Origin: an uncultured archaeon
GTDB taxonomy: Archaea > Nanobdellota > Nanobdellia > Pacearchaeales > GW2011-AR1
DNA length: 64,000 bases
Direction: 5' to 3'
Assembly: GCA_903831045.1 (NCBI GenBank)
Contig: CAIKWG010000042.1
Coordinates: forward strand, 13,239 to 77,238
Shown here piece after piece: positions 12,161-27,880 of the stretch (position 1 is the first letter of the stretch; each line of letters starts with the position of its first letter). The notes beneath the pieces are model-generated. The model was not told the origin of the DNA. It worked only from the letters and a program-made list of their open reading frames with translations, and made no database searches. The position numbers and the translations under genes are program-made.

Positions 12161-12193
12161 AAAGTAGCAAAGAGTAAATCTGATGTCTCACCA

Positions 12194-12978: not shown

Positions 12979-12994
12979 TCTAAATCTGCTGGAG

Positions 12995-13033
12995 GTGGCG
13001 AATTCTTGATGTCTTGATTCGCCACTTTCTTCT
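12995..13033 (+). terminator. hairpin terminator
   Basis: GTGGCGAAT...ATTCGCCAC then T-rich tract. Confidence 0.55.
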
Positions 13034-13066
13034 TATTAACAAATTAATTGTATAGGAGATTTTATT
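13033..13066 (+). promoter_or_regulatory. reiterated 5' cassette
   Basis: ttattaacaaattaattgtataggagattttatt before ATG 13067. Confidence 0.5.
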
Positions 13067-13378
13067 ATGAACAAAATCCAAAAGGTTTTGCTAGCGATTG
13101 CCCGAGCTTGTGGTAGTCCTGCTAAACCATCTGCCAAAGTGCGTATTCTTGAAACAGGTGAAAGTGTTGATGTCTATGGCAAACCTGCAAATGATTGGAG
13201 AGAAGGTTCTCAAGTTTTCATCTATTCTAGCTCTTCGCCAACTCGCTGGACAGCTAGAAATATTAAAATGAAAAAAGATGAAGACACCGAAATTCTTCTA
13301 GATACTCATAGATTCAATCACCCTAAACGGCTTCAAAGAGTTATCGCTAAAAAAGCAATTGTAATTCAAAAATTTTAA
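13067..13378 (+). CDS. small beta-rich protein (family with 13636/14087/14514)
   Basis: AKVRILETGESVDVYG...WREGSQVFIYSS motif shared with downstream paralogs; no signal peptide. Confidence 0.6.
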   Translation: MNKIQKVLLAIARACGSPAKPSAKVRILETGESVDVYGKPANDWREGSQVFIYSSSSPTRWTARNIKMKKDEDTEILLDTHRFNHPKRLQRVIAKKAIVIQKF

Positions 13379-13382
13379 TTCC

Positions 13383-13634
13383 ATGAAAAAAAAGTATTTC
13401 TACATTCTTACCTGCGAGTTTATAGAACCGAGATATGGAGAGTCCTGCAAAAGAACATCTACAGGGATTATTATTCCTAAAGATGAGAATCTAGCAGAAA
13501 ATGATCTTCCTGAAATTTATTCTCTTTGTTTAAAAAAGTTTAAGGAATTGCATCCTGTATGCAAACGGTTTGTAACTCTCTTTTATTCTCTTACTGAAAT
13601 TCCTGAAGAAGTTAAAAAAGAAGGAGATAATTAA
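13383..13634 (+). CDS. small hypothetical protein, paralog of 31130-31363
   Basis: MKKKYFYILTCEF...TLFYSLTEIPEE vs MRKKYFYILTCEV...TVFYRLTETT. Confidence 0.6.
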   Translation: MKKKYFYILTCEFIEPRYGESCKRTSTGIIIPKDENLAENDLPEIYSLCLKKFKELHPVCKRFVTLFYSLTEIPEEVKKEGDN

Positions 13635-13635
13635 A

Positions 13636-14052
13636 ATGAAAAAGTTCACCGCTCGAGACCAACTTGAGTTTGTAAAAACCAAGTCTCAGAAAAGAACAAA
13701 GAATTTAGGAATCATTATCCTAATTTTTCTTGTTATTATAATTGTTGTAAGTCTTATTTCTTGTGCATCCAATGAGACTAAGCCAGTGGCCAAAGTTTTC
13801 ATTCAGAAAGAGGAATGCACAATGATGATATACGGAGAGTTCCCCAAGGGATTAACAGTTGGAGAAAAGATAGTCATCTCTAAGGTCGCAGATGCAAGAT
13901 GGACCTACTGTGAGCCTTCAGTAGAATTTATGAGAGACACAGTCATTCCATCCAGCTTTAATACGAACTATCAATCCTATCGCTGGGCAACTATTCTTGA
14001 AATCTATTCCGCTTCAGAAACAAAAAATGAAGCTATTGATGTAGAGAAATAA
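13636..14052 (+). CDS. small lipoprotein-like protein (paralog array)
   Basis: TM/lipobox LISCAS; VAKVFIQKEE...GEKIVISK...YRWATILEIY. Confidence 0.6.
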   Translation: MKKFTARDQLEFVKTKSQKRTKNLGIIILIFLVIIIVVSLISCASNETKPVAKVFIQKEECTMMIYGEFPKGLTVGEKIVISKVADARWTYCEPSVEFMRDTVIPSSFNTNYQSYRWATILEIYSASETKNEAIDVEK

Positions 14053-14086
14053 TTAATTAACAATTAAATTTTAAGGAGAAATTAAA

Positions 14087-14470
14087 ATGAACTCAAAGAA
14101 AAAAATCTTGAAGTATGTTAATGGGTTGTTTACTGTTGGACTTATCCTGATTAGCCTGGTTTCATGTGCTAAAAAATATCCAACATCTGAGAAGGACTTT
14201 AAACCAGATGTCTATACTTCTGCAATTGTGCATCTCCTGAAAGAGAAAAAGGATGTTGAAGTAACAGGAGATTTTTCTTCAAAATGTAAGGAAGGAGATA
14301 CCGTGCTTGTTATGCAGAATATTTATTCTAGTGGTAGAAGAGTGTGCATTTATTCTTGGTGTTATTTGGATTCTCCGGTGTCAATACGAGATACTGTTTT
14401 TTCTAGTGCCGGGGATATTTATGTCTACAGAAATGCAGTTATTTATTTGCTCAGGCTTGATGAAGATTAA
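14087..14470 (+). CDS. small lipoprotein-like protein (paralog array)
   Basis: Lipobox LVSCAK; CKEGDTVLVMQN beta-motif; AAGGAG upstream. Confidence 0.6.
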   Translation: MNSKKKILKYVNGLFTVGLILISLVSCAKKYPTSEKDFKPDVYTSAIVHLLKEKKDVEVTGDFSSKCKEGDTVLVMQNIYSSGRRVCIYSWCYLDSPVSIRDTVFSSAGDIYVYRNAVIYLLRLDED

Positions 14471-14513
14471 TTAACATTTAACAAACAATTTAATCTATTG
14501 GAGGACATTTATC

Positions 14514-14978
14514 ATGAAACTTAAATTAATGGTTGCATGGATTATATTACTTGCAACAGTTAGTCTTGTTTCTTGTACTAGCCCAGTCGCCAAAGTTCTC
14601 ATTCAAAAGGAAAGCACTGAAGTTTTTATCTACGAAAGGTTTTCCCATGAATGGAAAGTAGGAGACAGAATTTTTATCTATCGCGATTTACGAGGTCAGT
14701 GGATTTATGACGAATATAATCTAAAATCTAAGGGCCTTGAAAACCGTAATTACAATGCAGTTTATGCTTGTAGATGGGCTACAATTCAAGAAATTTATCT
14801 TCTTAAGGAATCGCAATCAAATAATTCCCCTTCCACAGAAAAAGTTGAGAATGATAAATCAACAGATATTATTATTGTTTCAATTCTTTTGCTAATTGGA
14901 GTCGGCTTTATTTTGATTGTAATTTTAGCTCTTAATGATTTATTTAAAATCAAGAAAAAAACAATTTCTAAACATTGA
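14514..14978 (+). CDS. small lipoprotein-like protein with C-terminal TM (paralog array)
   Basis: Lipobox LVSCTS; VAKVLIQKES...WKVGDRIFIY...CRWATIQEIY. Confidence 0.6.
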   Translation: MKLKLMVAWIILLATVSLVSCTSPVAKVLIQKESTEVFIYERFSHEWKVGDRIFIYRDLRGQWIYDEYNLKSKGLENRNYNAVYACRWATIQEIYLLKESQSNNSPSTEKVENDKSTDIIIVSILLLIGVGFILIVILALNDLFKIKKKTISKH

Positions 14979-15001
14979 TTATCTATTAGAGGATTTTAAT
15001 T

Positions 15002-15430
15002 ATGAAAAAATTCACAATTGAAGAGTTCGATGAACTCACAACTGGCAAAAGTCAATGGTCTCTGAGCGCTCGAGGGAAAATTATTTCTCTTGTTGAGAGG
15101 GGCACATGTCTAAAATCAGAGATGGATAATTTTATTCTCTCAATTTGGGGGAAGAAAAGCATACTTAAAAATGAAGGAAAAAGTGTGGAAGGACTATGTG
15201 CAGTATCTTCGCCAGTTGAAGATTTTAAAGAAGGTAAAAAATATCTTCTGCATCTTGGTGACCCCTATGAATTGGAAGCTACTGTTATTGGAGAGATTGT
15301 TCTTTCTGATGCGGCGGGAAATAAAACTAACTTCCTCTTATTGCAAACAGACCAAGGTTCAATCTTGCAGTGTTATACAAATCCTAATGGGCGAATGCCT
15401 GCAGTTGAAATCTATAAGGAAATCAGTTAA
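15002..15430 (+). CDS. hypothetical protein
   Basis: 142 aa; N-terminus KKFTIEEFDELTTGKSQW resembles KKISLAEFLEMTKGMYVW of 33984-34436. Confidence 0.6.
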   Translation: MKKFTIEEFDELTTGKSQWSLSARGKIISLVERGTCLKSEMDNFILSIWGKKSILKNEGKSVEGLCAVSSPVEDFKEGKKYLLHLGDPYELEATVIGEIVLSDAAGNKTNFLLLQTDQGSILQCYTNPNGRMPAVEIYKEIS

Positions 15431-15489: not shown

Positions 15490-15681
15490 ATGATCTCAAG
15501 AAAAAAACAAGAGAATTATGCTTGGAAAATTTTTATAGGCTTAATTTGTATTTGGGCAATGATAATTGGTTTTCAGGTTATGCTCTGGATTTCTAAGTAC
15601 ATTTTGATTGGAGCTATTTTAGCAGCCATTTGTTTTTTGGTTATGAGGATTAATAATAAAAAACCAAAAGGTAATGCCTGA
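15490..15681 (+). CDS. small membrane protein (2 TM)
   Basis: 63 aa; TAGGAG upstream; stop overlaps AAA+ start by 8 nt. Confidence 0.55.
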   Translation: MISRKKQENYAWKIFIGLICIWAMIIGFQVMLWISKYILIGAILAAICFLVMRINNKKPKGNA

Positions 15682-17569
15682 TGAAATTGAACTCCCAGAC
15701 AATACCTTGTCTCCAGAAGAAAAAGACAAGCGTATAAAAGAGTTGGAGCAAATAGTTCAGAATCTGACCAGCAATATTAATCTTCTAAAATCTTCTAATA
15801 GTGGAAGTAATGCCTACATCCAAGAAGCAGAAAGTAGAATTCATCTTCTTGAGGAGATATTGAAGGGACGTATTGATGGTACAGAATCTGGAAAAGAACT
15901 TGTTTTACGTTTACATTCTGGGCTTCAAAAAGCTAAGGAAAAAATAACTGAGCAAAGGAAGCGCATTGAAGACCTGACTCAAGAACCTTTTATTATAGCA
16001 ACTATTCTTCGACTCTACAAGCAGGAAGGTAAGATAAATTACAGGAAGGCACATTATACCGAATTCAATGAAGGAAGTATTGTGCACATTAATCCTGAAG
16101 GTCCGTTTAGTCATCATACCTCTGCTAAAGGATTAATTCTTTCTATTGAGGGTTCAATCGCAAGTGTAAAATTTGAAGATGGATATGAAAATAATTATCC
16201 AGTTGGAGAGGGTAGTGATGCCTTACTTTTATTGGATGAGAAAACAACTGTCCTTCCAAAATTTTCTGCACTTGTTAACCTTGAAGGAAGAAAAATGGAG
16301 CTCACAGTTCCAGAAAAATTATTTCCCGTTCTTTCTCCAGGGGGAAGTGTCAAGCTCACGCAAAAAATGCAGATTGTTGATTATTATAATCCTCCTCAAA
16401 CAGGAGAGCTGGCAACTGTGCTTTCTGTTATTGATAGATCTTTTTGCAAAGTGGATTTTCAAGGAGCAAAGCTTAAGATTCTTCTTGGGAAAACTAATCC
16501 AGAACCAGGAGATACTGTTTTAATTGATTCTTCACGAACAATTATCCTAGCGAATCTTGGTAAAGATAATTCTAAGTTTTCTGTGGATAGTCTAACTCCT
16601 GTTTCTTGGGATGATATTGGTGGACTTAGAGAGGCAAAAGCTCAACTTCTTGAAGCTTTTATTACTCCCTCAAAGCAAACTAAAGAATATTCCTTTTATT
16701 CTAAAAAAATCTCAAAAGGAGCTTTGCTCCTCGGAGGTCCTGGTAGAGGAAAAACTCTTCTAGTGCGCGGACTAGTTAACAATCTTGTAGAAATTCACGG
16801 TCCAGATTTCTTGGAGGAAGGGTTTGCTGTGATAAAGGGGCCAGAAATTCTAACCAAGTATATTGGTGAACCCGAAGCATTCCTAAGAGAAGTATTTACT
16901 CGGCTCAAGAGTTATTCTAAACGAACAGGCAATCGCTCCTATCTTTTCATTGATGAAGCAGAAGCAATAGGCAGAAAACGCGGCACCGGAAAAAGTTCTG
17001 ATGTTGAAATGACCATTGTTCCAACTCTGCTTACGGAGATGGATGGACTTGAAAGTTCTTCGGTAACTGTTCTAATGGCAACAAACAGAGCAGACATTAT
17101 GGATCCCGCACTAACTAGGGACGGTAGAATTGACATGAAGATTCTTGTTCCAATGCCCCCCAAAGAAGATGCACTTGAAATTTTCAAGATTCATATGCGT
17201 AATTCTCCTTTAGGAGTGGGTTTGACCTTAGATGCACTCGCTAGTTTTGCCAATGAAGAATTATTTAGTGGAAAATATTCCTTCTATGAATTTTCAAAAG
17301 CAAAAGGCAAAAAAACAGAAATGTTTCTCTTTGGTCTTCCGAATATTCTTAATGGAGCTATGATTGCAAACATTATTGAAAATGCAAAAGCTTTTGCTCT
17401 TCGTAGGGATATTGAAAATAAAACTCTGACTGGTTTATCCGAGGGAGATATTCTTAAGGCACTCTCTTCAACATTTGAACAAAACAAACTTCTCAACTAT
17501 GAAGATGACCTGAAAGAATTTATCTCCTTGCATGAACTTGACATTTTCTCTGGTAAAAAATTCTATTAA
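15674..17569 (+). CDS. AAA+ unfoldase of the Mpa/ARC (bacterial proteasome ATPase) type
   Basis: Coiled coil, then two beta-barrel segments (GRKMELTVPEKLFPVLSPGGSVKL; PEPGDTVLIDSS). Walker A GGPGRGKT, Walker B LFIDEAEA, RKRGTGKSSDVEMTIVPTLLTEMDG, ATNRADIMDPALTRDGRID. Confidence 0.85.
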   Translation: MPDEIELPDNTLSPEEKDKRIKELEQIVQNLTSNINLLKSSNSGSNAYIQEAESRIHLLEEILKGRIDGTESGKELVLRLHSGLQKAKEKITEQRKRIEDLTQEPFIIATILRLYKQEGKINYRKAHYTEFNEGSIVHINPEGPFSHHTSAKGLILSIEGSIASVKFEDGYENNYPVGEGSDALLLLDEKTTVLPKFSALVNLEGRKMELTVPEKLFPVLSPGGSVKLTQKMQIVDYYNPPQTGELATVLSVIDRSFCKVDFQGAKLKILLGKTNPEPGDTVLIDSSRTIILANLGKDNSKFSVDSLTPVSWDDIGGLREAKAQLLEAFITPSKQTKEYSFYSKKISKGALLLGGPGRGKTLLVRGLVNNLVEIHGPDFLEEGFAVIKGPEILTKYIGEPEAFLREVFTRLKSYSKRTGNRSYLFIDEAEAIGRKRGTGKSSDVEMTIVPTLLTEMDGLESSSVTVLMATNRADIMDPALTRDGRIDMKILVPMPPKEDALEIFKIHMRNSPLGVGLTLDALASFANEELFSGKYSFYEFSKAKGKKTEMFLFGLPNILNGAMIANIIENAKAFALRRDIENKTLTGLSEGDILKALSSTFEQNKLLNYEDDLKEFISLHELDIFSGKKFY

Positions 17570-17579
17570 TCTTCTTGTT

Positions 17580-17762
17580 ATGGATCAAAAGCAAATCTTT
17601 GCAGATCCTGAAGAAAAAAAACTTCCTAAGGATTTGAATTTAGGTCCTCCTGAAGAAACTTCAGAAGAACAGGCAGAAGGAATAGGGAAATTTTTAGCAG
17701 ACCTGGCAGAGCTAATTGCAGACTCACAGAAGTTATTTGACAAGCTTTCGGCAAATCAATAA
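17580..17762 (+). CDS. acidic 60-aa peptide ending in Gln (Pup-like in position and composition only)
   Basis: Track ORF trimmed to ATG 17580; MDQKQIFADPEE...EGIGKFLADLAELIADSQKLFDKLSANQ. Confidence 0.5.
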   Translation: MDQKQIFADPEEKKLPKDLNLGPPEETSEEQAEGIGKFLADLAELIADSQKLFDKLSANQ

Positions 17763-17789
17763 TTTCTATTGTATTAACATTCTCATTTA

Positions 17790-17826
17790 TCTATTTGGAG
17801 AATAAATAAATAGAGTTCTTTTTTCA
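17790..17826 (+). terminator. weak AT-rich hairpin terminator
   Basis: TCTATTT...AAATAGA then GTTCTTTTTT. Confidence 0.35.
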
Positions 17827-17866
17827 AAAACAAAAAACAATTTTTTAATTAAATTTTTAGTTCATT

Positions 17867-19588
17867 ATGAAAAAACAAATTTCTTTTTTCGCAATCTTGA
17901 CGATGTGCTTAATGCTTTCCGTCAGTGTTTTTGGTCAGTCCTACAAAACAGCTGTTCCCATGAGTCAGCGTATTTCTGCATCGGCTTCTCTTCAACCCGT
18001 AAAATCTGGTAATCATTCGCTTCCGGTTATTGCCTGGGGGGGTGACATTGCAACAATCTATGGTGATATGTCTGGTATCTTCAAAAATGGAGGAGCAAAC
18101 ATTTCTACCCTCTTTCGTGAGGATGTGTTAACAAAACAAGTTGAAAAATGCTTGTCCGGAGAAACGCCCTATCTACGAGGAACAATGGGTATGATTAATG
18201 CTGCAGCAGATGCATTCCGAGCAAAAGGCATGGAGCTCGTTGTATTCTATGGTTTGACCTGGTCAACCGGAGGAGATGGAGCAGCTTTTCGTGCAGGAAA
18301 AAGTTTGAAGAATGCAAAAACAGTTATCGCTCAGCTCGACGGTCCGCATATGGACTACGCAGCAAACATGTTTGCAAATGCAGGCAGACTTGAGCAGATT
18401 CAATTCAAATTGGTTACTGACCTTTTGGCCGGTGTAGGTTTTAATGGTCCTGACCAATTTGTAAAAGATGTAACCATGGACGCTGTTTTTGCTATTACTC
18501 CTGATATTTTGACTCTGACAAGTAATGGTACGGTTGGAACAGGAAGTGAAGGTTCAGTTAAGGGAGCTACAATGGCTTTTACAACTAAAACCGCCAGCAG
18601 AATTATCTTTGATGTCTATGCAGTAAGAAAAGATTATTTTGATACACACAAAGAGGAAGTATTTGCCTTTGCAAGTGCATTAATGAAATCTCAGGAAGCT
18701 CTGCAGGATTTAATTAAAAATAAATCTTCTCGTCAGTCTGAATTTAAACAGTTGATGACCAAAGCTGCCGATTTGCTTTTGGCCGATCCAAATGCAACTC
18801 CCACTGCTGAAGCAATGCTTGGTGATTGTACTTTCATTGGTTTCGATGGTAACTATTCTTTCTTTACCGGTAAAGGCACAACCCGTAATTTTAAAACTCT
18901 GAACTCTGAAATTCAATCATCATTCTCAAAAATGAATCTGCTTGATGAACCAATTAATGTTCTACAAGCAAACTGGGATTATGCAGAATTGAAATCAGGT
19001 TTAAAGTATGCTACCATTGACGTTACTTCTGCTGCTCCTGCCGTTGTAACTACTGCTCCTAAATTTGATGCAAACAAAGTTGCTAAAGTAGTGGAATCAA
19101 AAATTGCAGCCGAGTCTGATACCTGGGATGAAGAAGGTACACTGTATACTTTTGAAATTTACTTTCAACCTAATCAGGATGTTTTTGATATTGCAAATTA
19201 TTCTGCTGACTTTAAAGAAATCCTGCGTCTTGCTCAGACTAACTCTGGTGCAATTGTTGTTCTCGAAGGATATTCTGATCCTGGAGCATATCTGAAAGCT
19301 CAGAAAGCCGGTTCAACTATTCAAGAATTAACTCAGATTAAACAGGCTGCTAAAAATCTTTCTGCTCAGAGATCTAATAATGCAAAAAAAGCATTCATGA
19401 CCTACTGCAAACAGAAAGGAATAGCCTTTGATGAGTCTCAGTTAACTCCTGTTGGTCGTGGAATAGATGCACCTAAATATGTTGCTCCTAAAACAAAAGA
19501 GCAGTGGTTGCAGAATTTCCGCGTTGCTTTCCGTCTGAAACAGGTGGAAGCCGAGAACTTGGATTTTGATCCTACAATTTACAAATAA
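17867..19588 (+). CDS. secreted periplasmic-binding-protein-like / OmpA-like C-terminal domain fusion
   Basis: Signal peptide MKKQISFFAILTMCLMLSVSVFGQ; NMT1/TauA-like body by eye; C-terminus VVLEGYSDPG...NLSAQRSNNAKKAF...GRGIDAP...NFRVAFR. Confidence 0.7.
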   Translation: MKKQISFFAILTMCLMLSVSVFGQSYKTAVPMSQRISASASLQPVKSGNHSLPVIAWGGDIATIYGDMSGIFKNGGANISTLFREDVLTKQVEKCLSGETPYLRGTMGMINAAADAFRAKGMELVVFYGLTWSTGGDGAAFRAGKSLKNAKTVIAQLDGPHMDYAANMFANAGRLEQIQFKLVTDLLAGVGFNGPDQFVKDVTMDAVFAITPDILTLTSNGTVGTGSEGSVKGATMAFTTKTASRIIFDVYAVRKDYFDTHKEEVFAFASALMKSQEALQDLIKNKSSRQSEFKQLMTKAADLLLADPNATPTAEAMLGDCTFIGFDGNYSFFTGKGTTRNFKTLNSEIQSSFSKMNLLDEPINVLQANWDYAELKSGLKYATIDVTSAAPAVVTTAPKFDANKVAKVVESKIAAESDTWDEEGTLYTFEIYFQPNQDVFDIANYSADFKEILRLAQTNSGAIVVLEGYSDPGAYLKAQKAGSTIQELTQIKQAAKNLSAQRSNNAKKAFMTYCKQKGIAFDESQLTPVGRGIDAPKYVAPKTKEQWLQNFRVAFRLKQVEAENLDFDPTIYK

Positions 19589-19618
19589 GAGTAAGAAAAC
19601 TTAATTGGAGATTTAATT

Positions 19619-20389
19619 ATGAAAAAGATAATTTTCTTATTTTTTCCACTGCTTATAATTTTTATGAGCAGTTGTGTGAATTCAGGGACAAATTCAAATT
19701 CATCTAATCCTGCGGCATCAACGGAGGTTTCAAAGCCAGTTTCAAAAGTGGATGTTGAACAAGCGATTGTTCCTTTTGATATTCCAGGAGAAGTAAGTTT
19801 GGCAAGAAACTTTTACTTTTTGTTTGATTGTTCTGGTTCAATGGGTGAAAAATGTAGCGGTAAGGAAAAAATAGTGGGAGCAAAAGAAGCTATGCTTCGT
19901 TTCCTAAAGAATATTCCTGCTGATGCAAACATTGGTTTGATTGCTTTTGGAGTTGACAGTGACCTTGGTTGCAAGGAAATTCTTATACTCGGAAAAAATG
20001 ATTATGCAACCATTGAGAAAGCAATTTCTACTCTTGAGCCAACGGGTCGAACACCTTTAGCTAAGGCAATATCCCTGGGAACAGACAGGTTAGTGAATCA
20101 GTACAAAAAACAATTGGGCTATGGAGAATATCGTCTGATTATAATCAGTGACGGGAATAATACTGATGGGGACATGGTGAAATCTTGTAAAAATCTTTCT
20201 CACTATGGATTTATCAGTTTGTATTCTATTGGCCTATGCATGGATACAGATAATGCTCTGAAATCCTTTGCATTGTCTTCTCGTGATGCTTCCAACTACG
20301 AAGAACTTGAAAAAGCTCTTGTTGAGACTGCTGCAGAGACAGATACTTTTGATTCATCTGTCTTTGATTCAACTCTGTTTAAAAAATAA
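19619..20389 (+). CDS. von Willebrand factor A (vWA) domain lipoprotein
   Basis: Lipobox FMSSC; MIDAS DCSGSMGEK, TGRTPLAKAI, IIISDGNNTDGD. Confidence 0.8.
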   Translation: MKKIIFLFFPLLIIFMSSCVNSGTNSNSSNPAASTEVSKPVSKVDVEQAIVPFDIPGEVSLARNFYFLFDCSGSMGEKCSGKEKIVGAKEAMLRFLKNIPADANIGLIAFGVDSDLGCKEILILGKNDYATIEKAISTLEPTGRTPLAKAISLGTDRLVNQYKKQLGYGEYRLIIISDGNNTDGDMVKSCKNLSHYGFISLYSIGLCMDTDNALKSFALSSRDASNYEELEKALVETAAETDTFDSSVFDSTLFKK

Positions 20390-20399
20390 TGTTTCACGG

Positions 20400-20433
20400 G
20401 GGCAGATAAACTCAAAATCTATCTGCCCTTTTT
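20400..20433 (+). terminator. hairpin terminator
   Basis: GGGCAGATA...TATCTGCCC followed by TTTTT. Confidence 0.6.
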
Positions 20434-20448
20434 AATTAAATTTTGAAA

Positions 20449-21999
20449 ATGAAAAAATTTATTGGTACAATTATTCTTATCCTCATTGGAGCAGGAATCT
20501 TTGCCTGGGTAAAATGGGGTTCTCCTTACTTTGCTGAAAAGAAGCAAATGAAAACTTCAGGAGTGAAGGTTGCCAACATGGAAACTTTGACTTGGGGGGG
20601 AGATGGCTATGCCGGTTACTTTGTCCTGAATTCTACTGAAATGAGAAGACGTCTTGCACTCAAAGGAATTATACTCAAATTTGTAGATGATGGAGGCGCC
20701 TATGCTTCTCGTCTTGAGAAATTCTCAAAAGGAGAATATGACTTTATTGCTCTTCCCGTAAGTTCATTTATTCAGCATGGAAAAAAATATTCCTATCGTC
20801 TTGGAACAATCCCTGCTGCAATATCAGAATCAATTGGAGCTGATGGGCTTTCTGTTTTTCCTGAGTTTAAATTTTCCAAGGTAAATGATTTTGATAATCC
20901 TAATCTCAAAATTGTTTACACGGGAGCTTCTCCTACTGAGGATATAATCAATTTGACTATCTCAAATTTTGATTTGTCTAATTTACAGGATTCTCCTTCT
21001 TGGAAAGTTGAGGTCAATAGTTCAGAAGAAGTTTTTAATCTTGCAAAAAAGGCTGCAAAAGAAAGTACCGTTGATAAAAGTACTACTGTTTACGGCATGT
21101 GGGAGCCAGAACTTTCAAAGGCTGAAGATCTCGGAATGAAAACAATTTGGGGATCAGAAAACTTTCGTAATTATATTGTGGATGTGTTTGTCTTTTCAAA
21201 TAAGGCAATGTCCGCTAAATTTGATAAAGTGACTGAAATTCTCAGAACCTATTTTGAAGTTGTTGATTATTACAACGCTCGCCAAGATGAACAGGTCAAG
21301 GAACTTAAAAAATTGACCAACCTCAAACAAGCAGCAGTTGAAAAGTTAATGTCTAAGATTCATTGGTACACACTTTATCAAAATGCCCATGATGAGTTCG
21401 GTATTTCTACGACCGCAGGAGATCAAGCAAATGAAGGATTGGTTAGAACCATCTATGCATGGAACGATATCAATCGTATCATGAATCTTGAAGGAGAGGT
21501 TGAGAATCCTTATACAATTTTGAATAAGAAAATTCTTGAAAATCTTCTTGCAAGTTCTCTGAAGCCAGTAGCTCCTTCAACGGTCTCAGCAGGTCCAGTA
21601 GATTTTAGTCCTCTGGATGCAAATGGCTGGGCAAGATTATCCGAAACGGGTATTATGAAAGTAGAGAACATTACTTTTCAGGCAAGTGCAAATAAAGTTG
21701 ATGATCTTGGAGAAGAGACGATTAGTAAAGTAGCTGAAAAACTTTTGCATAATTTTCCAAACAATCGTTTTCTAATTGCGGGCCATACTGCTCCCGGTGA
21801 CGAATCAGCAAACTTAAACCTTTCCCAGGAAAGAGCCAATGCTGTACGTCAAATTTTTATTGCAGTCTTTAACGTAGACCCGGACAGAATGTTAGCAAAA
21901 GGTTTTGGTTCCTCTCGTCCTCCTCAGAGAAAAGCAAATGAGTCTGAAAGAGCATTTCGTTCGCGCATGGCTCGTGTAGAATTTGTTCTAATGCAATAA
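20449..21999 (+). CDS. membrane-anchored binding-protein-like / OmpA-like C-terminal domain fusion
   Basis: Start moved to ATG 20449; N-terminal TM; SBP-like body; C-terminus FLIAGHTAPGDESANLNLSQERANAVRQ...ARVEFVL. Confidence 0.7.
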   Translation: MKKFIGTIILILIGAGIFAWVKWGSPYFAEKKQMKTSGVKVANMETLTWGGDGYAGYFVLNSTEMRRRLALKGIILKFVDDGGAYASRLEKFSKGEYDFIALPVSSFIQHGKKYSYRLGTIPAAISESIGADGLSVFPEFKFSKVNDFDNPNLKIVYTGASPTEDIINLTISNFDLSNLQDSPSWKVEVNSSEEVFNLAKKAAKESTVDKSTTVYGMWEPELSKAEDLGMKTIWGSENFRNYIVDVFVFSNKAMSAKFDKVTEILRTYFEVVDYYNARQDEQVKELKKLTNLKQAAVEKLMSKIHWYTLYQNAHDEFGISTTAGDQANEGLVRTIYAWNDINRIMNLEGEVENPYTILNKKILENLLASSLKPVAPSTVSAGPVDFSPLDANGWARLSETGIMKVENITFQASANKVDDLGEETISKVAEKLLHNFPNNRFLIAGHTAPGDESANLNLSQERANAVRQIFIAVFNVDPDRMLAKGFGSSRPPQRKANESERAFRSRMARVEFVLMQ

Positions 22000-22007
22000 T
22001 TAATTTC

Positions 22008-22934
22008 ATGGAGAAAAATAAATATCTTGAGGGAATTTTTGGGAATACAAAATATGCCCCTCCCTCTTCGAAATTTAAGGATCCTCTTCAGCAGGAAACC
22101 CAAATTCCTTCTTTAGAGGATCTAACTCCAAAAGCAATTCGAAAAGAATTAATGAAAAAGGTGAAAAAAAGTAGTATAACTAATACTGCCTATGCTTTGC
22201 CAATTTTAGCAATTTTTATCGCTCTTGCATTTGGAATTTCTCTGGGTTCATTGATTTCTTGGATACTAGCATCTTTTGGAGTAATAGCTCTAGTACGATG
22301 GGTAATTCCTAACTTCTTTCTCTTCGATGGTTTCGAAAAAAAGTATCGTAAAAATCTTCGGACTCTTATTGATCAGAGAGATGAAGAAAAGAGATTGCAA
22401 GTTAGAGAAAATCTTGAAAGACTGGGCATGCAGCAGGGTGCCGACCAATTCAATGAACTTCTGCAGACGTTTAATACTCTTGTTAGTGTTCTTGGAAAAA
22501 AGTTCAATGCAACTGAAATGACTTATATGAAATATTATGTAATAAGTCAGCAAGTTCTTGAAGCTGCTATGAACAATCTTCTGGAGATTACTCTTATTAA
22601 GACAAATCTAAGAAGCATAGATTCATCTGCACTACAAAAAAGGATTAAATATCTCAAGGCCTCCACTGACGAACTTGATAAGGAAGAAGTAAAAACTCTC
22701 AATGAAAGATTGGATTTATACAATTCTGAATCTACAAAAATAGAACGTCTTTTAGTTGAAAACGAGCAAGCCATAACCCAGATGGTTAAGACCACCAAAG
22801 CAATTTCTGAAGTTGACACCGTTGACCTTGAAGGAAAAGCGAAAATGGATGAAGCTATGCTTGAATTACGTGATGCTGTTCAGCGTCTTTCCTATTATCA
22901 TTTACACGAGTTAGATAAAAATGTTCCTCAATAA
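22008..22934 (+). CDS. 2-TM coiled-coil protein, XpaC-like by architecture
   Basis: Two adjacent TM helices after about 60 aa, then long helical region; sits directly upstream of the TelA-like gene, as xpaC-yaaN does in Bacillus. Confidence 0.45.
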   Translation: MEKNKYLEGIFGNTKYAPPSSKFKDPLQQETQIPSLEDLTPKAIRKELMKKVKKSSITNTAYALPILAIFIALAFGISLGSLISWILASFGVIALVRWVIPNFFLFDGFEKKYRKNLRTLIDQRDEEKRLQVRENLERLGMQQGADQFNELLQTFNTLVSVLGKKFNATEMTYMKYYVISQQVLEAAMNNLLEITLIKTNLRSIDSSALQKRIKYLKASTDELDKEEVKTLNERLDLYNSESTKIERLLVENEQAITQMVKTTKAISEVDTVDLEGKAKMDEAMLELRDAVQRLSYYHLHELDKNVPQ

Positions 22935-22962
22935 AAATTTAAAATTTAAGGAGTTAAAAATT

Positions 22963-24183
22963 ATGGAAACACAAGTAGTTGCAAAACCGCAAGTAGTAAC
23001 AAGAGAAGCTCTTGCATCAGAATTGAATCTTGGTAAGAATGATCTTTACAGCAATCCTGCAGATAACAAGGTCGTTGACATTGATCCTGAAATTGTTGCG
23101 TCCGTTCAACCCGAAGTGGATAAGTTCTTTCAAAATCTTATGGATAAGAATAAAGATGCCGCAGAAAAAACTGCAACAATCTATACTCTTGGGCGTAAGG
23201 CCGAAACCACTAAAAATGAGTTTCTTGATCGTCAGATGAAAGAGCTCATGACTGGAGAAGGAAATGGTCAGCTTGCTAATGGTCTGCTAAATCTTCGGGA
23301 TCAGATTGCAAAACTTGATCCTAATCTTTATTTTGGAGACAAATCCATTGGTGGATTCGGAAGCAGATTGGCCAGAAGATTGGCAGGAGATAACGAGTTT
23401 TTCAAAAAGCTCGTCCGCAAGTATCTGGATCAATACACTTCATCCGAAACTGTAATCCAAGAGATTGTTCTGGGATTGCAGGAAGGAGGTAAAAAGCTTC
23501 AGAGAAATAATATTACCCTCGGTGGAGAAAAAACGCAGATGCGGTCTGATGTCGAACAACTCAAAAAAGCAATTGCCTTTGGGCAGTTACTTGATGAGAA
23601 AATTGAAAAAGCAATTGCTGAAGCTACAGATGCCGAATGGAAACAGATTCTCTCTGAAGAAATTCTTTTCCCTTTGAGGCAGAGAATTAATTCCCTGAGG
23701 AAGACGCGGGTAGCTAAAGCTAACGGCATTTTAACTTATGAAATGATTGTACGTACGAACCAGCAGTTGATAAATGGTATCTTAAACGCAGACCAGGTCA
23801 TAGAAATATTAAAAATTGCTATCACCGAAAAACTTGCCATCCAGGATGCCAAAAAAGTGAATGAAGCAATTGCTGCTTTGGATAAACTCGCAGGTGATTT
23901 ACTTGTTGAGACTTCCGAAGATCTTCACAAAGTAGTTCTGGAAGTTTACAAAGTAGCTGCTCAGGCAGGGATTCCGATTCAGCAGTTGATCATTGCTCAT
24001 CAGAATGTTCTGGCTACAATCAAGGATTACTCTAAGTATATCCAGGATCAGCTTCCTATTATGAAAGAAGAAGCTACTCATGTTGAAGAATTGAACAAAG
24101 AGGTCGAAGAGGCCAATAAAAGAATGGAACGTGGTTCACGCATTGGCCTTCAGATTTCCGAAAGCATGAAAGACTTGTTTTAA
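22963..24183 (+). CDS. TelA-like (toxic anion resistance family) protein
   Basis: Start set to ATG 22963 behind AAGGAG; about 400 aa all-helical; by-eye similarity to TelA/YaaN layout. Confidence 0.55.
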   Translation: METQVVAKPQVVTREALASELNLGKNDLYSNPADNKVVDIDPEIVASVQPEVDKFFQNLMDKNKDAAEKTATIYTLGRKAETTKNEFLDRQMKELMTGEGNGQLANGLLNLRDQIAKLDPNLYFGDKSIGGFGSRLARRLAGDNEFFKKLVRKYLDQYTSSETVIQEIVLGLQEGGKKLQRNNITLGGEKTQMRSDVEQLKKAIAFGQLLDEKIEKAIAEATDAEWKQILSEEILFPLRQRINSLRKTRVAKANGILTYEMIVRTNQQLINGILNADQVIEILKIAITEKLAIQDAKKVNEAIAALDKLAGDLLVETSEDLHKVVLEVYKVAAQAGIPIQQLIIAHQNVLATIKDYSKYIQDQLPIMKEEATHVEELNKEVEEANKRMERGSRIGLQISESMKDLF

Positions 24184-24222
24184 TTCCCATCTTTCGATTC
24201 ATTTCGTGCTCAAATCATTTTC

Positions 24223-24250
24223 CTGTTTGGATTAAAAATAAACAGATTAA
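24223..24250 (+). terminator. degenerate family C hairpin
   Basis: CTGTTT...AAACAG with flanks resembling 3824 and 30197. Confidence 0.4.
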
Positions 24251-24297
24251 TCTTTCTTTTCACAAAAACAATTTTTTAATTAAATTTTTAGTTCATT

Positions 24298-25467
24298 ATG
24301 AAAAAACAAATTTTCTTTTTATTCGCAATTGTGATGTGCTTTATGCTTTCCACAAATATCAGTGTTAATGCTCAGTCTTCCAATAATTCTGCAGTCTATA
24401 CAGCTCCATGTGATGTTCCCATTATCACGCCGGTTATGAACGAGCCTCTGCCTTTTTTCTTTTCTCCGGATCAGGTAAAACCTAAAACCAAATTCAAAAT
24501 GGTTTGGTCAATCTATGCCGGTTGGAATCCCTGGGAATATGCCAGAGTTTCAGGTATCCTAGACAAATGGGCAAAGAAGTACGGAATCACCATTGAGTTG
24601 GAGCGATTGCAATATGGTCCTTCAATTGATGCATTTATGACTCCATCAGTAGATGCAATTGCAATTACAAATATGGATGTGCTCCTTGCACCAGTAACCG
24701 GGGGGATTGCTTGCACTGCTGCAATTATGGGGGACTTCAGTAACGGGAATGATGCTTACATTGTGAAAGGTAATCTTACAATTGCGGACATTCTAAATTA
24801 CGAAGTGATGCTTGTGGATAAAACGGTATCTGGTTATTTAGCTTTTAGAATGTGTGAGATGAATAGTCTTGACGCATCTAAGATTAAAATAAACAATACC
24901 AACGAAGACAAGATTACTTCAACTTTTCTTACCGATGCCAATAACAAAATGGTAATTACCTGGAATCCCTGGGTGATGCAGATTATGAAAAGTGACAATT
25001 CATTTCAAAATCTTTTCAACTCTTCAAAAATACCTGGTGAAATTCTTGATCTGACTGTTATCAAAACTTCTGTACTTGATAAAAATCCTAACTTTGGAAA
25101 AGCTCTGGCCGGTGCATGGTATGAAGTGATGGCCATAATGTCCTCAAGAACGGATAAAGGTAAAGCTGCTCTTAGTACTATGGCAGATATTGGAAGTTCA
25201 ACATTAATAGATTATACTGCTCAGCTGAAAACTACTGCAATGTTTTACACTCCTAAAGATGCAGCAGATTTTACTGAAAGCGAAGAAATGAAATCTAAAA
25301 TGTTGAAAGTCCGTAATTTCTGTTTTAAACAGGGCTGGCTGGGTGATTTGAAATCTCCAAATGATTTTGGAATTCAGTTTCCCAACGGCGTTGCTGGTTC
25401 TTCAGCGAATGTCCTCTTTAAATTTGATTCCAAGTTTATGAGGATGGCTGAACGTGGTGAATTGTAG
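24298..25467 (+). CDS. ABC transporter substrate-binding protein (NitT/TauT, NMT1-like)
   Basis: Signal peptide ...ISVNAQ; WSIYAGWNPWEYA..., WNPWVMQ motifs; next to cognate permease and ATPase. Confidence 0.7.
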   Translation: MKKQIFFLFAIVMCFMLSTNISVNAQSSNNSAVYTAPCDVPIITPVMNEPLPFFFSPDQVKPKTKFKMVWSIYAGWNPWEYARVSGILDKWAKKYGITIELERLQYGPSIDAFMTPSVDAIAITNMDVLLAPVTGGIACTAAIMGDFSNGNDAYIVKGNLTIADILNYEVMLVDKTVSGYLAFRMCEMNSLDASKIKINNTNEDKITSTFLTDANNKMVITWNPWVMQIMKSDNSFQNLFNSSKIPGEILDLTVIKTSVLDKNPNFGKALAGAWYEVMAIMSSRTDKGKAALSTMADIGSSTLIDYTAQLKTTAMFYTPKDAADFTESEEMKSKMLKVRNFCFKQGWLGDLKSPNDFGIQFPNGVAGSSANVLFKFDSKFMRMAERGEL

Positions 25468-25487
25468 TCTGTTTTTTATTAACCAAG

Positions 25488-25529
25488 AAAAGGTGCTGGA
25501 GTTTGAAATATTATCTTCAGCACCTTTTT
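25488..25529 (+). terminator. hairpin terminator
   Basis: AAAAGGTGCTG...CAGCACCTTTT. Confidence 0.6.
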
Positions 25530-25547
25530 AACAAATTAAATTTAGTC

Positions 25548-26642
25548 ATGATAAAACAAATTTTGAAAAAAGTAATCAAGTGGTTAGGAGAATTCTTTGT
25601 AGAAATTTTTAACATCTTCAGGAATTTTTTCAAACTGCGTACTACTCCTGGAAAAAAGGTTTCTCCGTTCCTAGTGAATCTAATCTTTGTATCAGCTATT
25701 TTATTCTATGGAATTGCTTCTTCCAAAAGGCATGAAGTTAACCCTAAAGATAAACTAGTTCCAACTTTTGGAATGATGTGGACTGCTGTTAAGAGCACAG
25801 TTTTTATTCCTAAGATAGAATATAAATTTAATGATTCAACCGGAGAGAGAATGTCTTACATAGGGCCCGAAACGTTACGCCAAGCTATCTCTCAGGATAT
25901 AAAAGATTACAAGGAAGGAAAATACCATTCCATTTTTCATCCTATTAATTCTGCTATGTTCTTTAAAGGAAGCACATTTTTCGAAGAGAAGAGATCAATC
26001 TTACTAAGAGATGGTGCAACTAGAAATATGCTTAATCATGGTGAGAGCAAGATTCTGAAAGATTCAATTGTAAGTGGAAGAATTGTTTTGAAAGCTATGG
26101 GATTAATTCTCATTGGAATATTCCTAGGGTTATATATGGGAATTTTTGCTTACATTGAAAAACTTCTCTACAGATTTGTTCTCTACTTTGATAAGATTCC
26201 TGCTCTTGCAATTTTGCCGATTCTATTTGTAATCCTCGGTACTGGAGAAATAACAAAAATAGCTTTGATTGTTATTGGAGTAGCTCCAACAATAATTCTT
26301 GATACATACCTGCGCGTAAAAACAGTTCATGATGAGCAGATTGTAACTGGATTAACTCTTGGTGCTTCTACTCCTGAGATTATCTACAAGATTGTTTTTC
26401 CTCAAATTTTTCCTGAAGTCTTGAATACAATCAGACTGAATTTTAAATCAGTCATTTTATTCTTACTTGCCGCAGAAGGAATTTGTGCAAATGCGGGAAT
26501 AGGTTATAGAATCTTTGTTGCTCAGCGTACAACTGACATGGCAACCATTATACCCTACGTGCTTCTAATTAGTCTGGCTGCATTTTTTGTAGACTGGGCA
26601 TTCAGATCTTGGATAAAATCATATAAATGGTTAAATAAATAA
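25548..26642 (+). CDS. ABC transporter permease (NitT/TauT family) with long N-terminal extension
   Basis: Start moved to ATG 25548; BPD-type core ...TGLTLGASTPEIIYKIVFPQIFPEVLN... with 6 TM. Confidence 0.75.
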   Translation: MIKQILKKVIKWLGEFFVEIFNIFRNFFKLRTTPGKKVSPFLVNLIFVSAILFYGIASSKRHEVNPKDKLVPTFGMMWTAVKSTVFIPKIEYKFNDSTGERMSYIGPETLRQAISQDIKDYKEGKYHSIFHPINSAMFFKGSTFFEEKRSILLRDGATRNMLNHGESKILKDSIVSGRIVLKAMGLILIGIFLGLYMGIFAYIEKLLYRFVLYFDKIPALAILPILFVILGTGEITKIALIVIGVAPTIILDTYLRVKTVHDEQIVTGLTLGASTPEIIYKIVFPQIFPEVLNTIRLNFKSVILFLLAAEGICANAGIGYRIFVAQRTTDMATIIPYVLLISLAAFFVDWAFRSWIKSYKWLNK

Positions 26643-26652
26643 TTCTAAAGTC

Positions 26653-27543
26653 ATGGAAAAGGAATATATTCTGACTGCAAAAGATTTAGTTCAATCCTAT
26701 GATGGAAGAACAATTCTTAATCATTTGAACTTTAAAATTAAAGAAGGAGAAATTGTTACGGTCGTTGGTCCAACTGGTTGTGGCAAATCTACTCTTCTGC
26801 GATTACTTCTTGGATCCGAACTGCCATTTAGTGGAGAGATTTTAATGTTTGGGGAAGAATTCAAATCTCCTGATAAAACTCGGGGAATTGTTTTTCAAAA
26901 ATATTCTCTCTACGAATTTCTTGACGTTAAGACAAATGTTATGTTTGGACTTGATCTGGGATACTTTAATCTATTTCAAAACATTCTTGTTTCTTTCGCA
27001 CCATTCTTGCTGAGGAAAAAGAATAGGTTGAAATTAAAAGAATTTCAAGAAGAGGCAAACCAGTATCTTGAAAAAGTGGGTTTAGCTGAGCACAAGGATA
27101 AATATCCTTTTCAACTTTCAGGAGGTCAGAGGCAGAGAGTTGCAATTGCACAATCTGCAATTCCAAATCCAAAAATTCTTTTGATGGATGAACCTCTGGG
27201 TGCACTGGATGTTAGCACTCGTGAAAGTTTGCAGTTGTTTATTAAAAATCTTTGGCAGGAAACAGGGCAAACAATTATCTTTGTAACCCATGACCTCGAA
27301 GAAGCCGTATTTCTTGGAACACGCCTTATCGTTCTTTCTCAATATTACAAGGATGGTAACGGGAACGGGGCAAAGATTGTCAAGGATATTGCTATTCCCT
27401 GGGCTGAGCCTCGTTCCGCTGAAATAAAATATTCCCCCGAGTTTAGTCAAATTATCAAAGAGATAAAACAAGAGGGATTAGATAAAAACTATCTTCAATC
27501 GGTTGAAGAATTTGATCTTAGTCATCCTGACTCAATTATTTAA
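26653..27543 (+). CDS. ABC transporter ATP-binding protein (NitT/TauT family)
   Basis: GPTGCGKST, LSGGQRQRVAIAQ, LLMDEPLGALD, VTHDLEEA. Confidence 0.9.
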   Translation: MEKEYILTAKDLVQSYDGRTILNHLNFKIKEGEIVTVVGPTGCGKSTLLRLLLGSELPFSGEILMFGEEFKSPDKTRGIVFQKYSLYEFLDVKTNVMFGLDLGYFNLFQNILVSFAPFLLRKKNRLKLKEFQEEANQYLEKVGLAEHKDKYPFQLSGGQRQRVAIAQSAIPNPKILLMDEPLGALDVSTRESLQLFIKNLWQETGQTIIFVTHDLEEAVFLGTRLIVLSQYYKDGNGNGAKIVKDIAIPWAEPRSAEIKYSPEFSQIIKEIKQEGLDKNYLQSVEEFDLSHPDSII

Positions 27544-27556
27544 AATTAACATTCCC

Positions 27557-27880
27557 ATGGAAATACTCCATTTACGATCGTTGCTCCAGTATTTTCCAAA
27601 AGATTTTGAATGCTCAGTTTCTTTTGGTAATAGTACTGGATCCGGAATTTCAATAAGAACAGGACCTTCAATTTATTTTGAGGTTGCTATTCTAAAATTT
27701 GTTCCAGAGCAAAATCATTTTACTTTCACCTACTGCTATCGGCTTGTCACAAATCCTGCTACAAATAATCAGGAGACATTTGATAAGCTAGAAGCATTAG
27801 CAAAAACTATTGAAGAGAAATCTTCTATGAAAGTAGTTTTGATTGAATCCTATAATCGACCCAAAGCTTATGCTGACTAA
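27557..27880 (+). CDS. hypothetical protein
   Basis: Track ORF trimmed to ATG 27557 (MEILHLRS). Confidence 0.5.
   Translation: MEILHLRSLLQYFPKDFECSVSFGNSTGSGISIRTGPSIYFEVAILKFVPEQNHFTFTYCYRLVTNPATNNQETFDKLEALAKTIEEKSSMKVVLIESYNRPKAYAD

Follow-up and report, generated by a model that had tools for sequence, protein, structure and literature searches.

Is a run of envelope-type genes on an archaeal contig a chance gathering of familiar parts, or is it a piece of one system? The question was raised by a 64,000-nucleotide (nt) stretch of DNA from an uncultured archaeon (the window; positions 13,239 to 77,238 of contig CAIKWG010000042.1, assembly GCA_903831045.1), in which an initial annotation, made from the sequence without database searches, had singled out five genes at positions 17867 to 24183. 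These were described as two fusions of a solute-binding protein (SBP)-like domain to an OmpA-like domain (fusions 1 and 2), a von Willebrand factor A (vWA) lipoprotein, a protein with two transmembrane (TM) segments that was likened to XpaC (the 2-TM protein), and a TelA-like protein. Gene calls on the window returned all five open reading frames (ORFs). A gene neighborhood search recovered their order in 57 non-redundant loci, and the five genes proved to be the center of a larger conserved cluster of 10 to 12 genes that extends in the window from approximately 15490 to 27880 (Table 1). The five genes are thus a real central block, but the unit had been drawn too narrowly, as the genes of an ATP-binding cassette (ABC) importer (24298 to 27543) and those of an AAA ATPase and a small acidic protein (15674 to 17762) also belong to it. 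The loci share their composition, the identities of their domains, and their synteny, and they come in two variants, in which TelA is exchanged for a coiled-coil protein of approximately 275 amino acids (aa) and the AAA ATPase is exchanged along with it.

The locus scan, with one genome per species, gave 56 loci; counts are given here for the 57 non-redundant loci. The usual gene order was fusion 1, vWA lipoprotein, fusion 2, 2-TM protein, TelA, free SBP, permease, ABC ATPase, and AAA, and the order fusion 1, vWA, fusion 2, two genes, SBP, permease, and ATPase was found in essentially all loci. An ortholog of fusion 1 was present in 52 of the 57, always as the first gene, and the free SBP gene lay 3' of the TelA or coiled-coil gene in 45. 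A Bacteroidales metagenome-assembled genome (MAG) with approximately 52% identity carried fusion 1, vWA, fusion 2, a 283-aa protein, TelA, SBP, permease, ATPase, AAA, and a 58-aa protein, in this order. In the window clade (the window, an 81%-identical relative from an independent assembly, L059, and further contigs), the genes for the AAA ATPase and the small acidic protein are placed upstream of fusion 1 instead. L059 carries the same 12-gene block, and the module is kept between the two while the flanks are not; the module therefore sits in a variable, ORFan-rich stretch, in line with its earlier description as an accessory block, and its domain content bears out the description as envelope associated. 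Genes inserted between the coiled-coil and SBP genes, which break the otherwise rigid order, were seen in Planktothrix (L054, 13445 to 16400; 598 and 381 aa) and in one Obscuribacter MAG (L051, 13526 to 14800; 424 aa).

Carriers found in the scan belonged to Bacteroidota, Acidobacteriota, and Cyanobacteria/Melainabacteria, to MAGs labeled as Clostridia, and further to Aminicenantes, Poribacteria, Zixibacteria, KSB1, Victivallales, and Fibrobacteraceae, with one gammaproteobacterial and two archaeal MAGs; a protein search added Nealsonbacteria and Alteromonadaceae. The cluster is therefore distributed over about ten bacterial phyla plus archaeal MAGs. Two cultured carriers, Sulfidibacter corallicola M133 and Acanthopleuribacter pedis KCTC 12899, both have the coiled-coil variant, and no cultured carrier of the TelA type was present among the loci found. 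No relative was detected in IMG/VR viral contigs or in metagenome scans with the permease and with an alignment of close relatives of fusion 2, and an exact-sequence look-up of the window TelA (with two start choices) and fusion 2 returned no identical record.

The exchange that separates the two variants concerns the gene after that of the 2-TM protein. The window protein in this slot matched PF05816 far above the cutoff (E = 5.9e-35; 121.4 bits versus a cutoff of 30; model positions 11 to 328 of 332), its close relatives did so as well, and it has no hydrophobic segment, so that the TelA label could be kept. The slot was occupied by TelA in 25 loci and by the ~275-aa coiled-coil protein in 22, never by both, and no homology between the two was detectable (hhalign probability, 1%). 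An AAA gene was adjacent to the core in 31 loci, either 3' of the ABC ATPase gene or, in the window clade, 5' of fusion 1. In 14 of these loci, all of the TelA type, the AAA ATPase was Mpa/ARC-like; in the other 17, all of the coiled-coil type, it was a protein of approximately 575 aa with a PF00004 match at about residues 330 to 455 and an N-terminal half with no detectable family. The two AAA types were only approximately 24% identical over the AAA core. This strict covariation is the strongest functional clue that the cluster offers, and because the AAA type changes with the slot protein, it suggests that the AAA ATPase acts on the helical protein in the slot. One locus, labeled Euryarchaeota SM23-78 (L018, 11591 to 13495), encodes a member of the 2-TM family followed in the TelA slot by a 387-aa protein that matched neither the TelA nor the ~275-aa coiled-coil profile at an E value of ≤1e-5 and that may be a third slot occupant.

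The window AAA ATPase matched PF00004 (E = 4.7e-28) and, weakly, Prot_ATP_ID_OB_N; its best-matching NCBIfam model was TIGR03689 pup_AAA (248.3 bits over residues 79 to 606, below the cutoff of 504.75), and Mpa (5kwa) aligned to residues 203 to 605. A coiled coil, an OB region, and a single AAA domain, with a small acidic protein encoded next door, recall the Mpa/ARC and Pup pair of Actinobacteria; in contrast to that pair, the window AAA ATPase scores far below the TIGR03689 cutoff and the acidic protein has no Pup match. Acidic ORFs of 55 to 70 aa lie 3' of the AAA gene in Bacteroidales loci and in L059, the L059 copy being 54% identical to that of the window. None of four small proteins gave any Pfam match, Pup included, at an E value of ≤1, and the C termini of the acidic proteins (...SANQ, ...EEE, and ...EINS) show no GGQ or GGE end; a role as a Pup- or UBact-type tag was dropped on these grounds. 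Genes for a proteasome, PafA, or Dop were not seen in the neighborhood of the module. In Bacteroidales, where the AAA gene and its small neighbor span 17551 to 19574 of L001, the acidic protein has a D-I-D-D-V-I-x-E-I-D stretch that recalls the Mpa-binding helix of Pup.

On the outer side of the membrane, the cluster encodes two fusions whose N-terminal domains have no Pfam match; Pfam and the PDB sequence-profile search both saw the OmpA part only. When compared directly with the ABC binding protein of the same cluster, the N-terminal domains of fusions 1 and 2 gave hhalign probabilities of 96.8% and 97.4% (E = 3e-10 and 1e-11, respectively), and a weak SsuA_fam match (2.3e-5) was found as well. 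By these comparisons both domains are paralogs of the operon's own SBP, of the NitT/TauT family. For fusion 2, for which 77 homologs were found, an AlphaFold2 model (pLDDT, 89; pTM, 0.84) confirmed a TauA/SsuA-type SBP fold at the level of prediction: Foldseek matched it to TauA (6ssy; E = 5e-13, TM-score of 0.79), SsuA, ThiY/Thi5, and CmpA/NrtA, and separately matched the OmpA-like domain to 3td3 of Acinetobacter baumannii. The same fold may be assigned to fusion 1 from profile evidence. The OmpA-like domain of fusion 2 matched PF00691 (E = 5e-14, 52.9 bits) above the cutoff of 27.2 bits and gave PDB profile matches from an E value of 1e-19, and its GHT, D453, and LSxxRA motifs were conserved in 54 to 56 of 57 sequences. 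In fusion 1 the match to PF00691 was weak (E = 3e-3, 18.2 bits) and below this threshold; its C-terminal domain nevertheless aligned to the OmpA-like domain of fusion 2 (hhalign, 95.8%; E = 7.5e-9), has an insertion of approximately 25 residues, and retains a G-[HY]-S-D ... L-S-x-x-R motif across 55 orthologs, with D471 and R502 conserved. The initial picture of an SBP fold joined to an OmpA-like domain thus stood in full for fusion 2, in which the structure prediction found both parts, while in fusion 1 the binding domain is assigned by profile only and the OmpA-like domain stays below the Pfam cutoff. The two proteins also differ in how they would be placed, fusion 1 having a Sec-type signal peptide and fusion 2 a single N-terminal TM helix.

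The vWA protein matched VWA_2 (E = 1.9e-12, 48.2 bits) and VWA (E = 9e-11, 42.7 bits) in Pfam, and its signal peptide ends in a lipobox cysteine, Cys19, which was present in 49 of 55 orthologs. The metal ion-dependent adhesion site (MIDAS), formed by D70-x-S72-x-S74, T145, and D178, was invariant in 55 of 55, so that a lipoprotein with an intact MIDAS was correctly called. Its proposed kinship with TerY was not borne out. TelA and a vWA protein with a MIDAS site do occur together in Ter/TelA systems; TerY, however, is cytoplasmic, whereas the window protein is an exported lipoprotein, and profile scans of the neighbors of the vWA and TelA genes gave no match to TerB/C/D/Z, kinase, phosphatase, or PP2C families. 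A TerY-type assignment is therefore unlikely.

The 2-TM protein was the invariant partner of both variants: in all 51 loci for which sequence is available at its place in the order, a member of its family is encoded there. The protein has a TM hairpin at about residues 62 to 104 ahead of approximately 200 helical residues, and 640 cluster representatives of the family were recovered in an exhaustive profile search (E ≤ 1e-3). At the level of HMMER, no match to PF10112, the XpaC family, was obtained with 7 diverse members (E ≤ 5) or with 149 members (E ≤ 0.01), and the 149 members gave no Snf7, PspA, or other consistent Pfam family. By these searches the 2-TM proteins form a large unnamed family of their own that resembles XpaC in architecture and position only. 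Of the families that the initial annotation had named for profile searches, TelA, VWA, and, for fusion 2, OmpA were thus found, while XpaC was not, and the SBP domains had no Pfam match. The xpaC-telA (yaaN) pair of Firmicutes is not known to be accompanied by fusions, a vWA protein, an ABC importer, or an AAA ATPase. It has in common with the window that the gene of a PF05816 protein comes directly after that of a 2-TM protein whose cytoplasmic tail is helical, and differs in that the window 2-TM protein has no PF10112 similarity; because XpaC similarity is not detectable, the pairing proposed at the outset is an analogy and not a membership. A search for TelA in plasmids gave 12 records, with no XpaC neighbor in the two regions inspected. 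The Firmicute pair has been tied to envelope stress, and as xpaC-telA is upregulated in daptomycin-resistant Enterococcus faecium, so is TelA (PMC6811118).

The three genes directly 3' of TelA encode, by their family matches, a NitT/TauT-type importer. The free SBP exceeded the cutoff of TIGR03427 ABC_peri_uca (372.6 versus 333.9 bits), the permease matched BPD_transp_1 (E = 1.8e-19) with further matches of the TauC/SsuC/NtrB type, and the best matches of the ABC ATPase were of the taurine/sulfonate/nitrate type (TauB-like). The importer thus resembles the TIGR03427, TauABC, and SsuABC systems, to which the TauA/SsuA fold of the fused domains adds. It differs from them in that the cluster adds two SBP paralogs fused to peptidoglycan-binding domains, in a permease N-terminal extension of approximately 180 to 330 residues, and in that no catabolic genes for a candidate substrate recur in the locus flanks.

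The host of the module is an archaeon: archaeal core genes, among them RpoD, a lone 5S rRNA gene, and archaeal-type secF-secD, lie on the same contig from approximately 8 kb downstream of the module (Table 1). The flanks of the module consist of low-GC ORFans without Pfam matches, and the closest archaeal relative is a Pacearchaeota MAG (L017) with a 46%-identical copy of the module on a 232-kb contig; both suggest that the host genome is probably of the DPANN type. The closest relatives of the module proteins were found in Bacteroidales, at approximately 52% identity. In a neighbor-joining tree built quickly from distances over the concatenation of four proteins, and bearing no support values, the window and L059 and the Pacearchaeota copy grouped with a Bacteroidales clade that lies within the TelA-type group of Bacteroidota, and the GC content of the module (0.36 to 0.39) was slightly above that of the flanks (~0.33). 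On account of this nesting and of the GC content, the archaeal copies are most simply read as having been transferred from Bacteroidota, which is also their most likely origin.

An operon of similar composition has been described in computational work by Ravi et al. (2024; mSystems 9:e00847-23, PMC11237479). It contains PspA, TM-Snf7, AAA, an ABC ATPase and permease, and PBPB+OmpA, with OGG56892.1 of Candidatus Handelsmanbacteria as an example, and the authors proposed ATP-dependent membrane remodeling linked to solute transport, with peptidoglycan as the ligand of OmpA and the transported solute as that of the PBP domain (PMC11237479). Compared by its published description, that operon, like the window, brings together an SBP+OmpA fusion, the permease and ATPase of an ABC system, a helical protein anchored in the membrane, and an AAA ATPase of the PF00004 type, and the coiled-coil variant with its ~575-aa AAA ATPase fits the published description "inactive AAA + AAA." The window differs in having TelA where PspA is listed, in its gene order, in a vWA lipoprotein, second fusion, and free SBP that Ravi et al. 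do not mention, and in an AAA ATPase of the Mpa/ARC-like architecture; in addition, the Snf7 homology of the 2-TM protein was not reproduced here, by weak tests. The main text of Ravi et al. contains no occurrence of "vWA" or "von Willebrand," and "TelA" does not occur in the main text or in one supplementary file (PMC11237479). Our literature search found no paper joining TelA, OmpA, vWA, and ABC; a 2026 preprint that matched TelA and vWA was set aside, as it concerns the unrelated LXG toxin TelA. The window is possibly a TelA/vWA variant of this operon class, with the published operon as a sister form. A similar operon had thus been noticed computationally and barely described, and what is new here is the TelA/vWA variant with its covarying AAA ATPase. 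The arrangement recurs in many lineages, which goes part of the way toward the refutation that the initial annotation had set for itself, but it is not annotated as a system, and the initial view that it does not correspond to a named one holds.

Taken as a whole, the cluster would be one trans-envelope system that couples solute uptake to ATP-dependent membrane maintenance or remodeling under envelope stress, a reading that we favor tentatively and to which we give a little less than an even chance. Outside the membrane, two wall-tethered SBP paralogs and the MIDAS vWA lipoprotein would form a layer that captures or senses a ligand, putatively a small one of the NitT/TauT class, and that feeds or gates the dedicated importer. 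At the cytoplasmic face the 2-TM protein would recruit TelA to the membrane, and the classical AAA ATPase would assemble, disassemble, remodel, or extract it, by which uptake might be linked to the upkeep of the membrane when the envelope is under stress. The interactions, the ligand, and the role in this scheme are all inferred from the genomic evidence given above.

A number of points weigh against it. The cluster is known from computational work only. An adjacent AAA gene is missing from seven TelA-type loci in which 4 kb or more of sequence is available downstream, so that the AAA ATPase is not obligatory in cis. The name of TIGR03427 ("putative urea") itself rests on context only. The structure model of TelA, built from a shallow alignment of 9 sequences, reached a pLDDT of 55, and Foldseek gave no match at an E value of ≤0.001 for it, only insignificant matches to long-helix proteins of the ClyA and BAR-like kind. 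An ESCRT-III- or PspA-like character went undetected in all three helical proteins, by tests that were weak. For the ~275-aa protein, a PspA identity is not claimed, as only 2 of 18 sequences gave weak PspA_IM30 matches, no PDB match to PspA or Vipp1 was found, and the comparison with a single Escherichia coli PspA sequence reached 6% in hhalign. For the 2-TM family and TelA, comparisons with Snf7 and PspA gave hhalign probabilities of ≤3%, the templates being single sequences; the 2-TM family reached 0.1% against a yeast Snf7 sequence and gave only coiled-coil noise in a PDB profile search. The tree on which the transfer rests carries no support values, and OmpA-like domains and a lipoprotein have no evident role in a host without peptidoglycan or an outer membrane.

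Much of the same evidence could be read as plain nutrient uptake, by a NitT/TauT ABC system with three binding proteins, two of them immobilized on the wall for capture, and a ligand that might be urea-like, a sulfonate, nitrate or bicarbonate, or of the pyrimidine type; TelA, the 2-TM protein, the vWA lipoprotein, and the AAA ATPase would then be accessory, with no remodeling. The three SBP-type domains are indeed paralogous, several SBPs per importer are common, the free SBP passes its family cutoff next to a typical TauC/SsuC permease and a TauB-like ATPase, and the top Foldseek matches were ligand-bound TauA and SsuA. Against it, five or six genes outside the transporter are conserved over about ten phyla as strictly as the transporter itself, the strict covariation of the AAA ATPase with TelA and the coiled-coil protein would not be expected of simple uptake, and the flanks show no conserved catabolic genes; we regard this reading, the main rival of the one that we favor, as rather unlikely. 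That the 2-TM and TelA genes are merely a Firmicute-type XpaC-YaaN stress pair adjoining unrelated envelope and transport genes would agree with the shared architecture, in which TelA comes after a 2-TM protein that has a helical tail, and with the existence of such a pair in Firmicutes. It is a very improbable account of a pair that in every locus keeps its place after fusion 2 and before the SBP, that shows no PF10112 similarity in 149 members, and in which TelA can be swapped while the 2-TM partner and the neighbors stay orthologous.

Resistance to phages and colicins has historically been associated with Ter/TelA loci, and a module in a variable, ORFan-rich region might act in anti-phage defense or exclusion, with surface proteins that sense or block infection and TelA and the AAA ATPase executing a membrane response. 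PADLOC gave weak IetA and TRIP13 matches for the AAA ATPase, but otherwise only generic AAA, ABC, and MotB matches, and TelA, the vWA protein, the fusions, and the 2-TM protein went unmatched. The module encodes no domain of the effector kind, such as a nuclease or a toxin, its gene order stays rigid from phylum to phylum where defense islands are typically shuffled, and it is absent from IMG/VR viral contigs, all of which leaves a defense role quite improbable. The bacterial type of the module proteins (OmpA-like domains, a lipobox, and Bacteroidales relatives at approximately 52% identity) and a GC content slightly above that of the flanks could also indicate a bacterial fragment joined to archaeal DNA in assembly or binning. 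Such an artifact is hardly credible, given that same-strand low-GC ORFans lie on both sides with archaeal core genes 8 kb away on the same contig, that the independently assembled L059 has the same block and a homolog of the gene abutting RpoD (window 35428 to 35748), that two further window-clade contigs show the same layout amid ORFans, that AT-rich TATA-like boxes lie close to the start codons of the module, and that a Pacearchaeota MAG carries its 46%-identical copy on a 232-kb contig.

The archaeal host, which the initial annotation had not recognized, changes how the peptidoglycan-binding domains and the lipoprotein of the module are to be read. The binding motif of the OmpA-like domains is intact, which leaves room, speculatively, for a role at the contact with a bacterial partner. 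In a fuller version, TelA and the ~275-aa protein would be interchangeable membrane-recruited scaffolds, each with a coevolved AAA ATPase, as analogs of ESCRT-III or PspA with Vps4, and would be wired to a wall-tethered receptor-importer; the DPANN-type archaeon would use the peptidoglycan-binding domains and the adhesin-like vWA lipoprotein where it touches its partner, to hold on to, sense, or take solutes from the partner's wall. We consider this combination improbable as a whole; if true, it would give TelA its first mechanistic context. TelA, which has been without a mechanism for about three decades, is found here in a defined slot of a rigid operon of 9 to 10 genes, beside an invariant membrane partner, and the switch of the AAA ATPase with the replacement of TelA makes two interactions testable, that of the 2-TM protein with TelA and that of TelA with the AAA ATPase. 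A multiphylum envelope machine would join wall-tethered binding proteins, a MIDAS lipoprotein, and an ABC importer, and its presence in at least two archaeal lineages, with promoters that appear to be of the archaeal type, points to interdomain transfer of a whole envelope module into recipients without the wall that it is built to bind.

Table 1. Features of the module and of the archaeal core region in the window
Feature	Coordinates	Strand	Remark
63-aa ORF with hydrophobic segment	15490..15681	+	ORF call; directly 5' of AAA gene, overlaps AAA start
AAA ATPase, 631 aa; N-terminal coiled coil, OB region, one classical AAA; Mpa/ARC-like	15674..17569	+	
60-aa acidic protein	17580..17762	+	ORF begins 17532, likely start 17580; 3' of AAA gene
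57-nt direct repeat, copy 1: AT-rich palindromic TATA-like box TTTTTAATTAAATTTT and start of fusion 1 gene	17833..17889	+	
Fusion 1, 573 aa: signal peptide, SBP-like (NitT/TauT type), OmpA-like peptidoglycan-binding domain	17867..19588	+	
vWA lipoprotein, 256 aa, complete MIDAS	19619..20389	+	VWA_2/VWA matches
Hairpin and T-run (terminator-like)	20398..20433	+	Overlaps TATA-like box 20429-20444
Fusion 2, 516 aa: N-terminal TM anchor, SBP-like, OmpA-like domain	20449..21999	+	ORF from 20443, likely ATG 20449
2-TM protein, 308 aa: 2-TM hairpin, ~200-aa cytoplasmic helical/coiled-coil part	22008..22934	+	Core component
TelA-family protein, 406 aa	22963..24183	+	ORF from 22921, likely start 22963
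57-nt direct repeat, copy 2: TATA-like box and start of SBP gene	24264..24320	+	
Free ABC substrate-binding protein, 389 aa, signal peptide	24298..25467	+	TIGR03427
ABC permease with N-terminal extension	25503..26642	+	ORF from TTG 25503; ATG 25548 with repeat-like start context
ABC ATPase, 296 aa	26653..27543	+	ABC_tran E = 1e-31
Small ORF, ~108 aa (ORF from 27503)	27554..27880	+	3' of ABC ATPase in window clade
DUF655-S13-S4-S11-RpoD	35942-38663	-	RpoD 168.8 bits versus cutoff of 153
tRNA-Gly, 95 nt, ~20 extra nt (likely intron)	40173-40267	-	
Lone 5S rRNA gene	41616-41730	+	
secF-secD, archaeal type	41808-44254	+	

The module had been divided into two transcription units by a terminator at 20400. 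The hairpin is real as a sequence feature, with an 11-bp stem at 20398 to 20430 followed by a T-run (dG, -15.6 kcal/mol; z = -4.55), and it is conserved in L059; the boxes upstream of the genes, however, suggest three or four units. The 16-mer TTTTTAATTAAATTTT occurs in exactly three copies in the window, with a fourth site at one mismatch, where 0.35 sites would be expected, and each of the three exact copies precedes an ATG, that of fusion 1, of fusion 2, or of the SBP, by approximately 10 to 25 nt. Those of fusion 1 and the SBP are part of a direct repeat whose two copies are 96% identical and extend into the first codons (MKKQI...), and within the permease ORF an ATG is preceded by a weaker copy of the start context (repeat family D1, 25533 to 25564). 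The fusion 1 and SBP genes of L059 are also preceded by two copies of one block, although of another sequence than in the window, which points to concerted evolution or to an operator or promoter in common. If the boxes function as their position implies, the arrangement looks like near-leaderless, TATA-box-driven archaeal transcription of three or four coregulated units.

Two small ORFs, neither of them assigned to a family, bracket the block. ORFs of 63 to 67 aa hold the position before the AAA gene in window-clade contigs, matched by position and size, and the 63-aa ORF of the window is possibly a lineage-specific part of the block. At the other end, the ~108-aa ORF is 50% identical to a 103-aa ORF at the same position in L059, two further window-clade contigs have 104-aa ORFs there, and the window ORF (27554 to 27880) has no Pfam match.

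Upstream of the module, approximately 15 kb of same-strand ORFs (672 to 15430) begins right after a tRNA-Arg gene (555 to 626); no Pfam match was obtained in the 13 ORFs tested, and none of the ORFs of this stretch is conserved in L059. Among them are two or three paralogous small lipoprotein-like ORFs (13636 to 14052, 14087 to 14470, and 14514 to 14978), two of which share a ...PVAKV(F/L)IQKE...RWATI(L/Q)EIY motif. Downstream, a 321-aa ORF (29207 to 30172) gave weak matches of the phage receptor-binding-protein kind, and a 166-aa ORF (32309 to 32809) gave a weak match to the TonB C-terminal domain (E = 6.6e-5, just below the cutoff), a domain of the bacterial-envelope type in a variable region. 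In a Pacearchaeota locus (L061, 19438 to 21499), the module and AAA gene are followed by genes for a Peptidase_S74 protein (tail-spike chaperone) and a PspA_IM30 protein, and another window-clade contig encodes a 701-aa Band_7 protein downstream of the module; in archaeal surroundings, genes of membrane maintenance are thus found repeatedly close to the module. Beyond the archaeal core genes, a large polysaccharide/glycan biosynthesis cluster (44699 to 63802) encodes a flippase-like Polysacc_synt protein, epimerases/dehydratases, GT4 glycosyltransferases, a B12-binding radical SAM enzyme, a cytidylyltransferase, and an archaeal-type UDP-GlcNAc 3-dehydrogenase.

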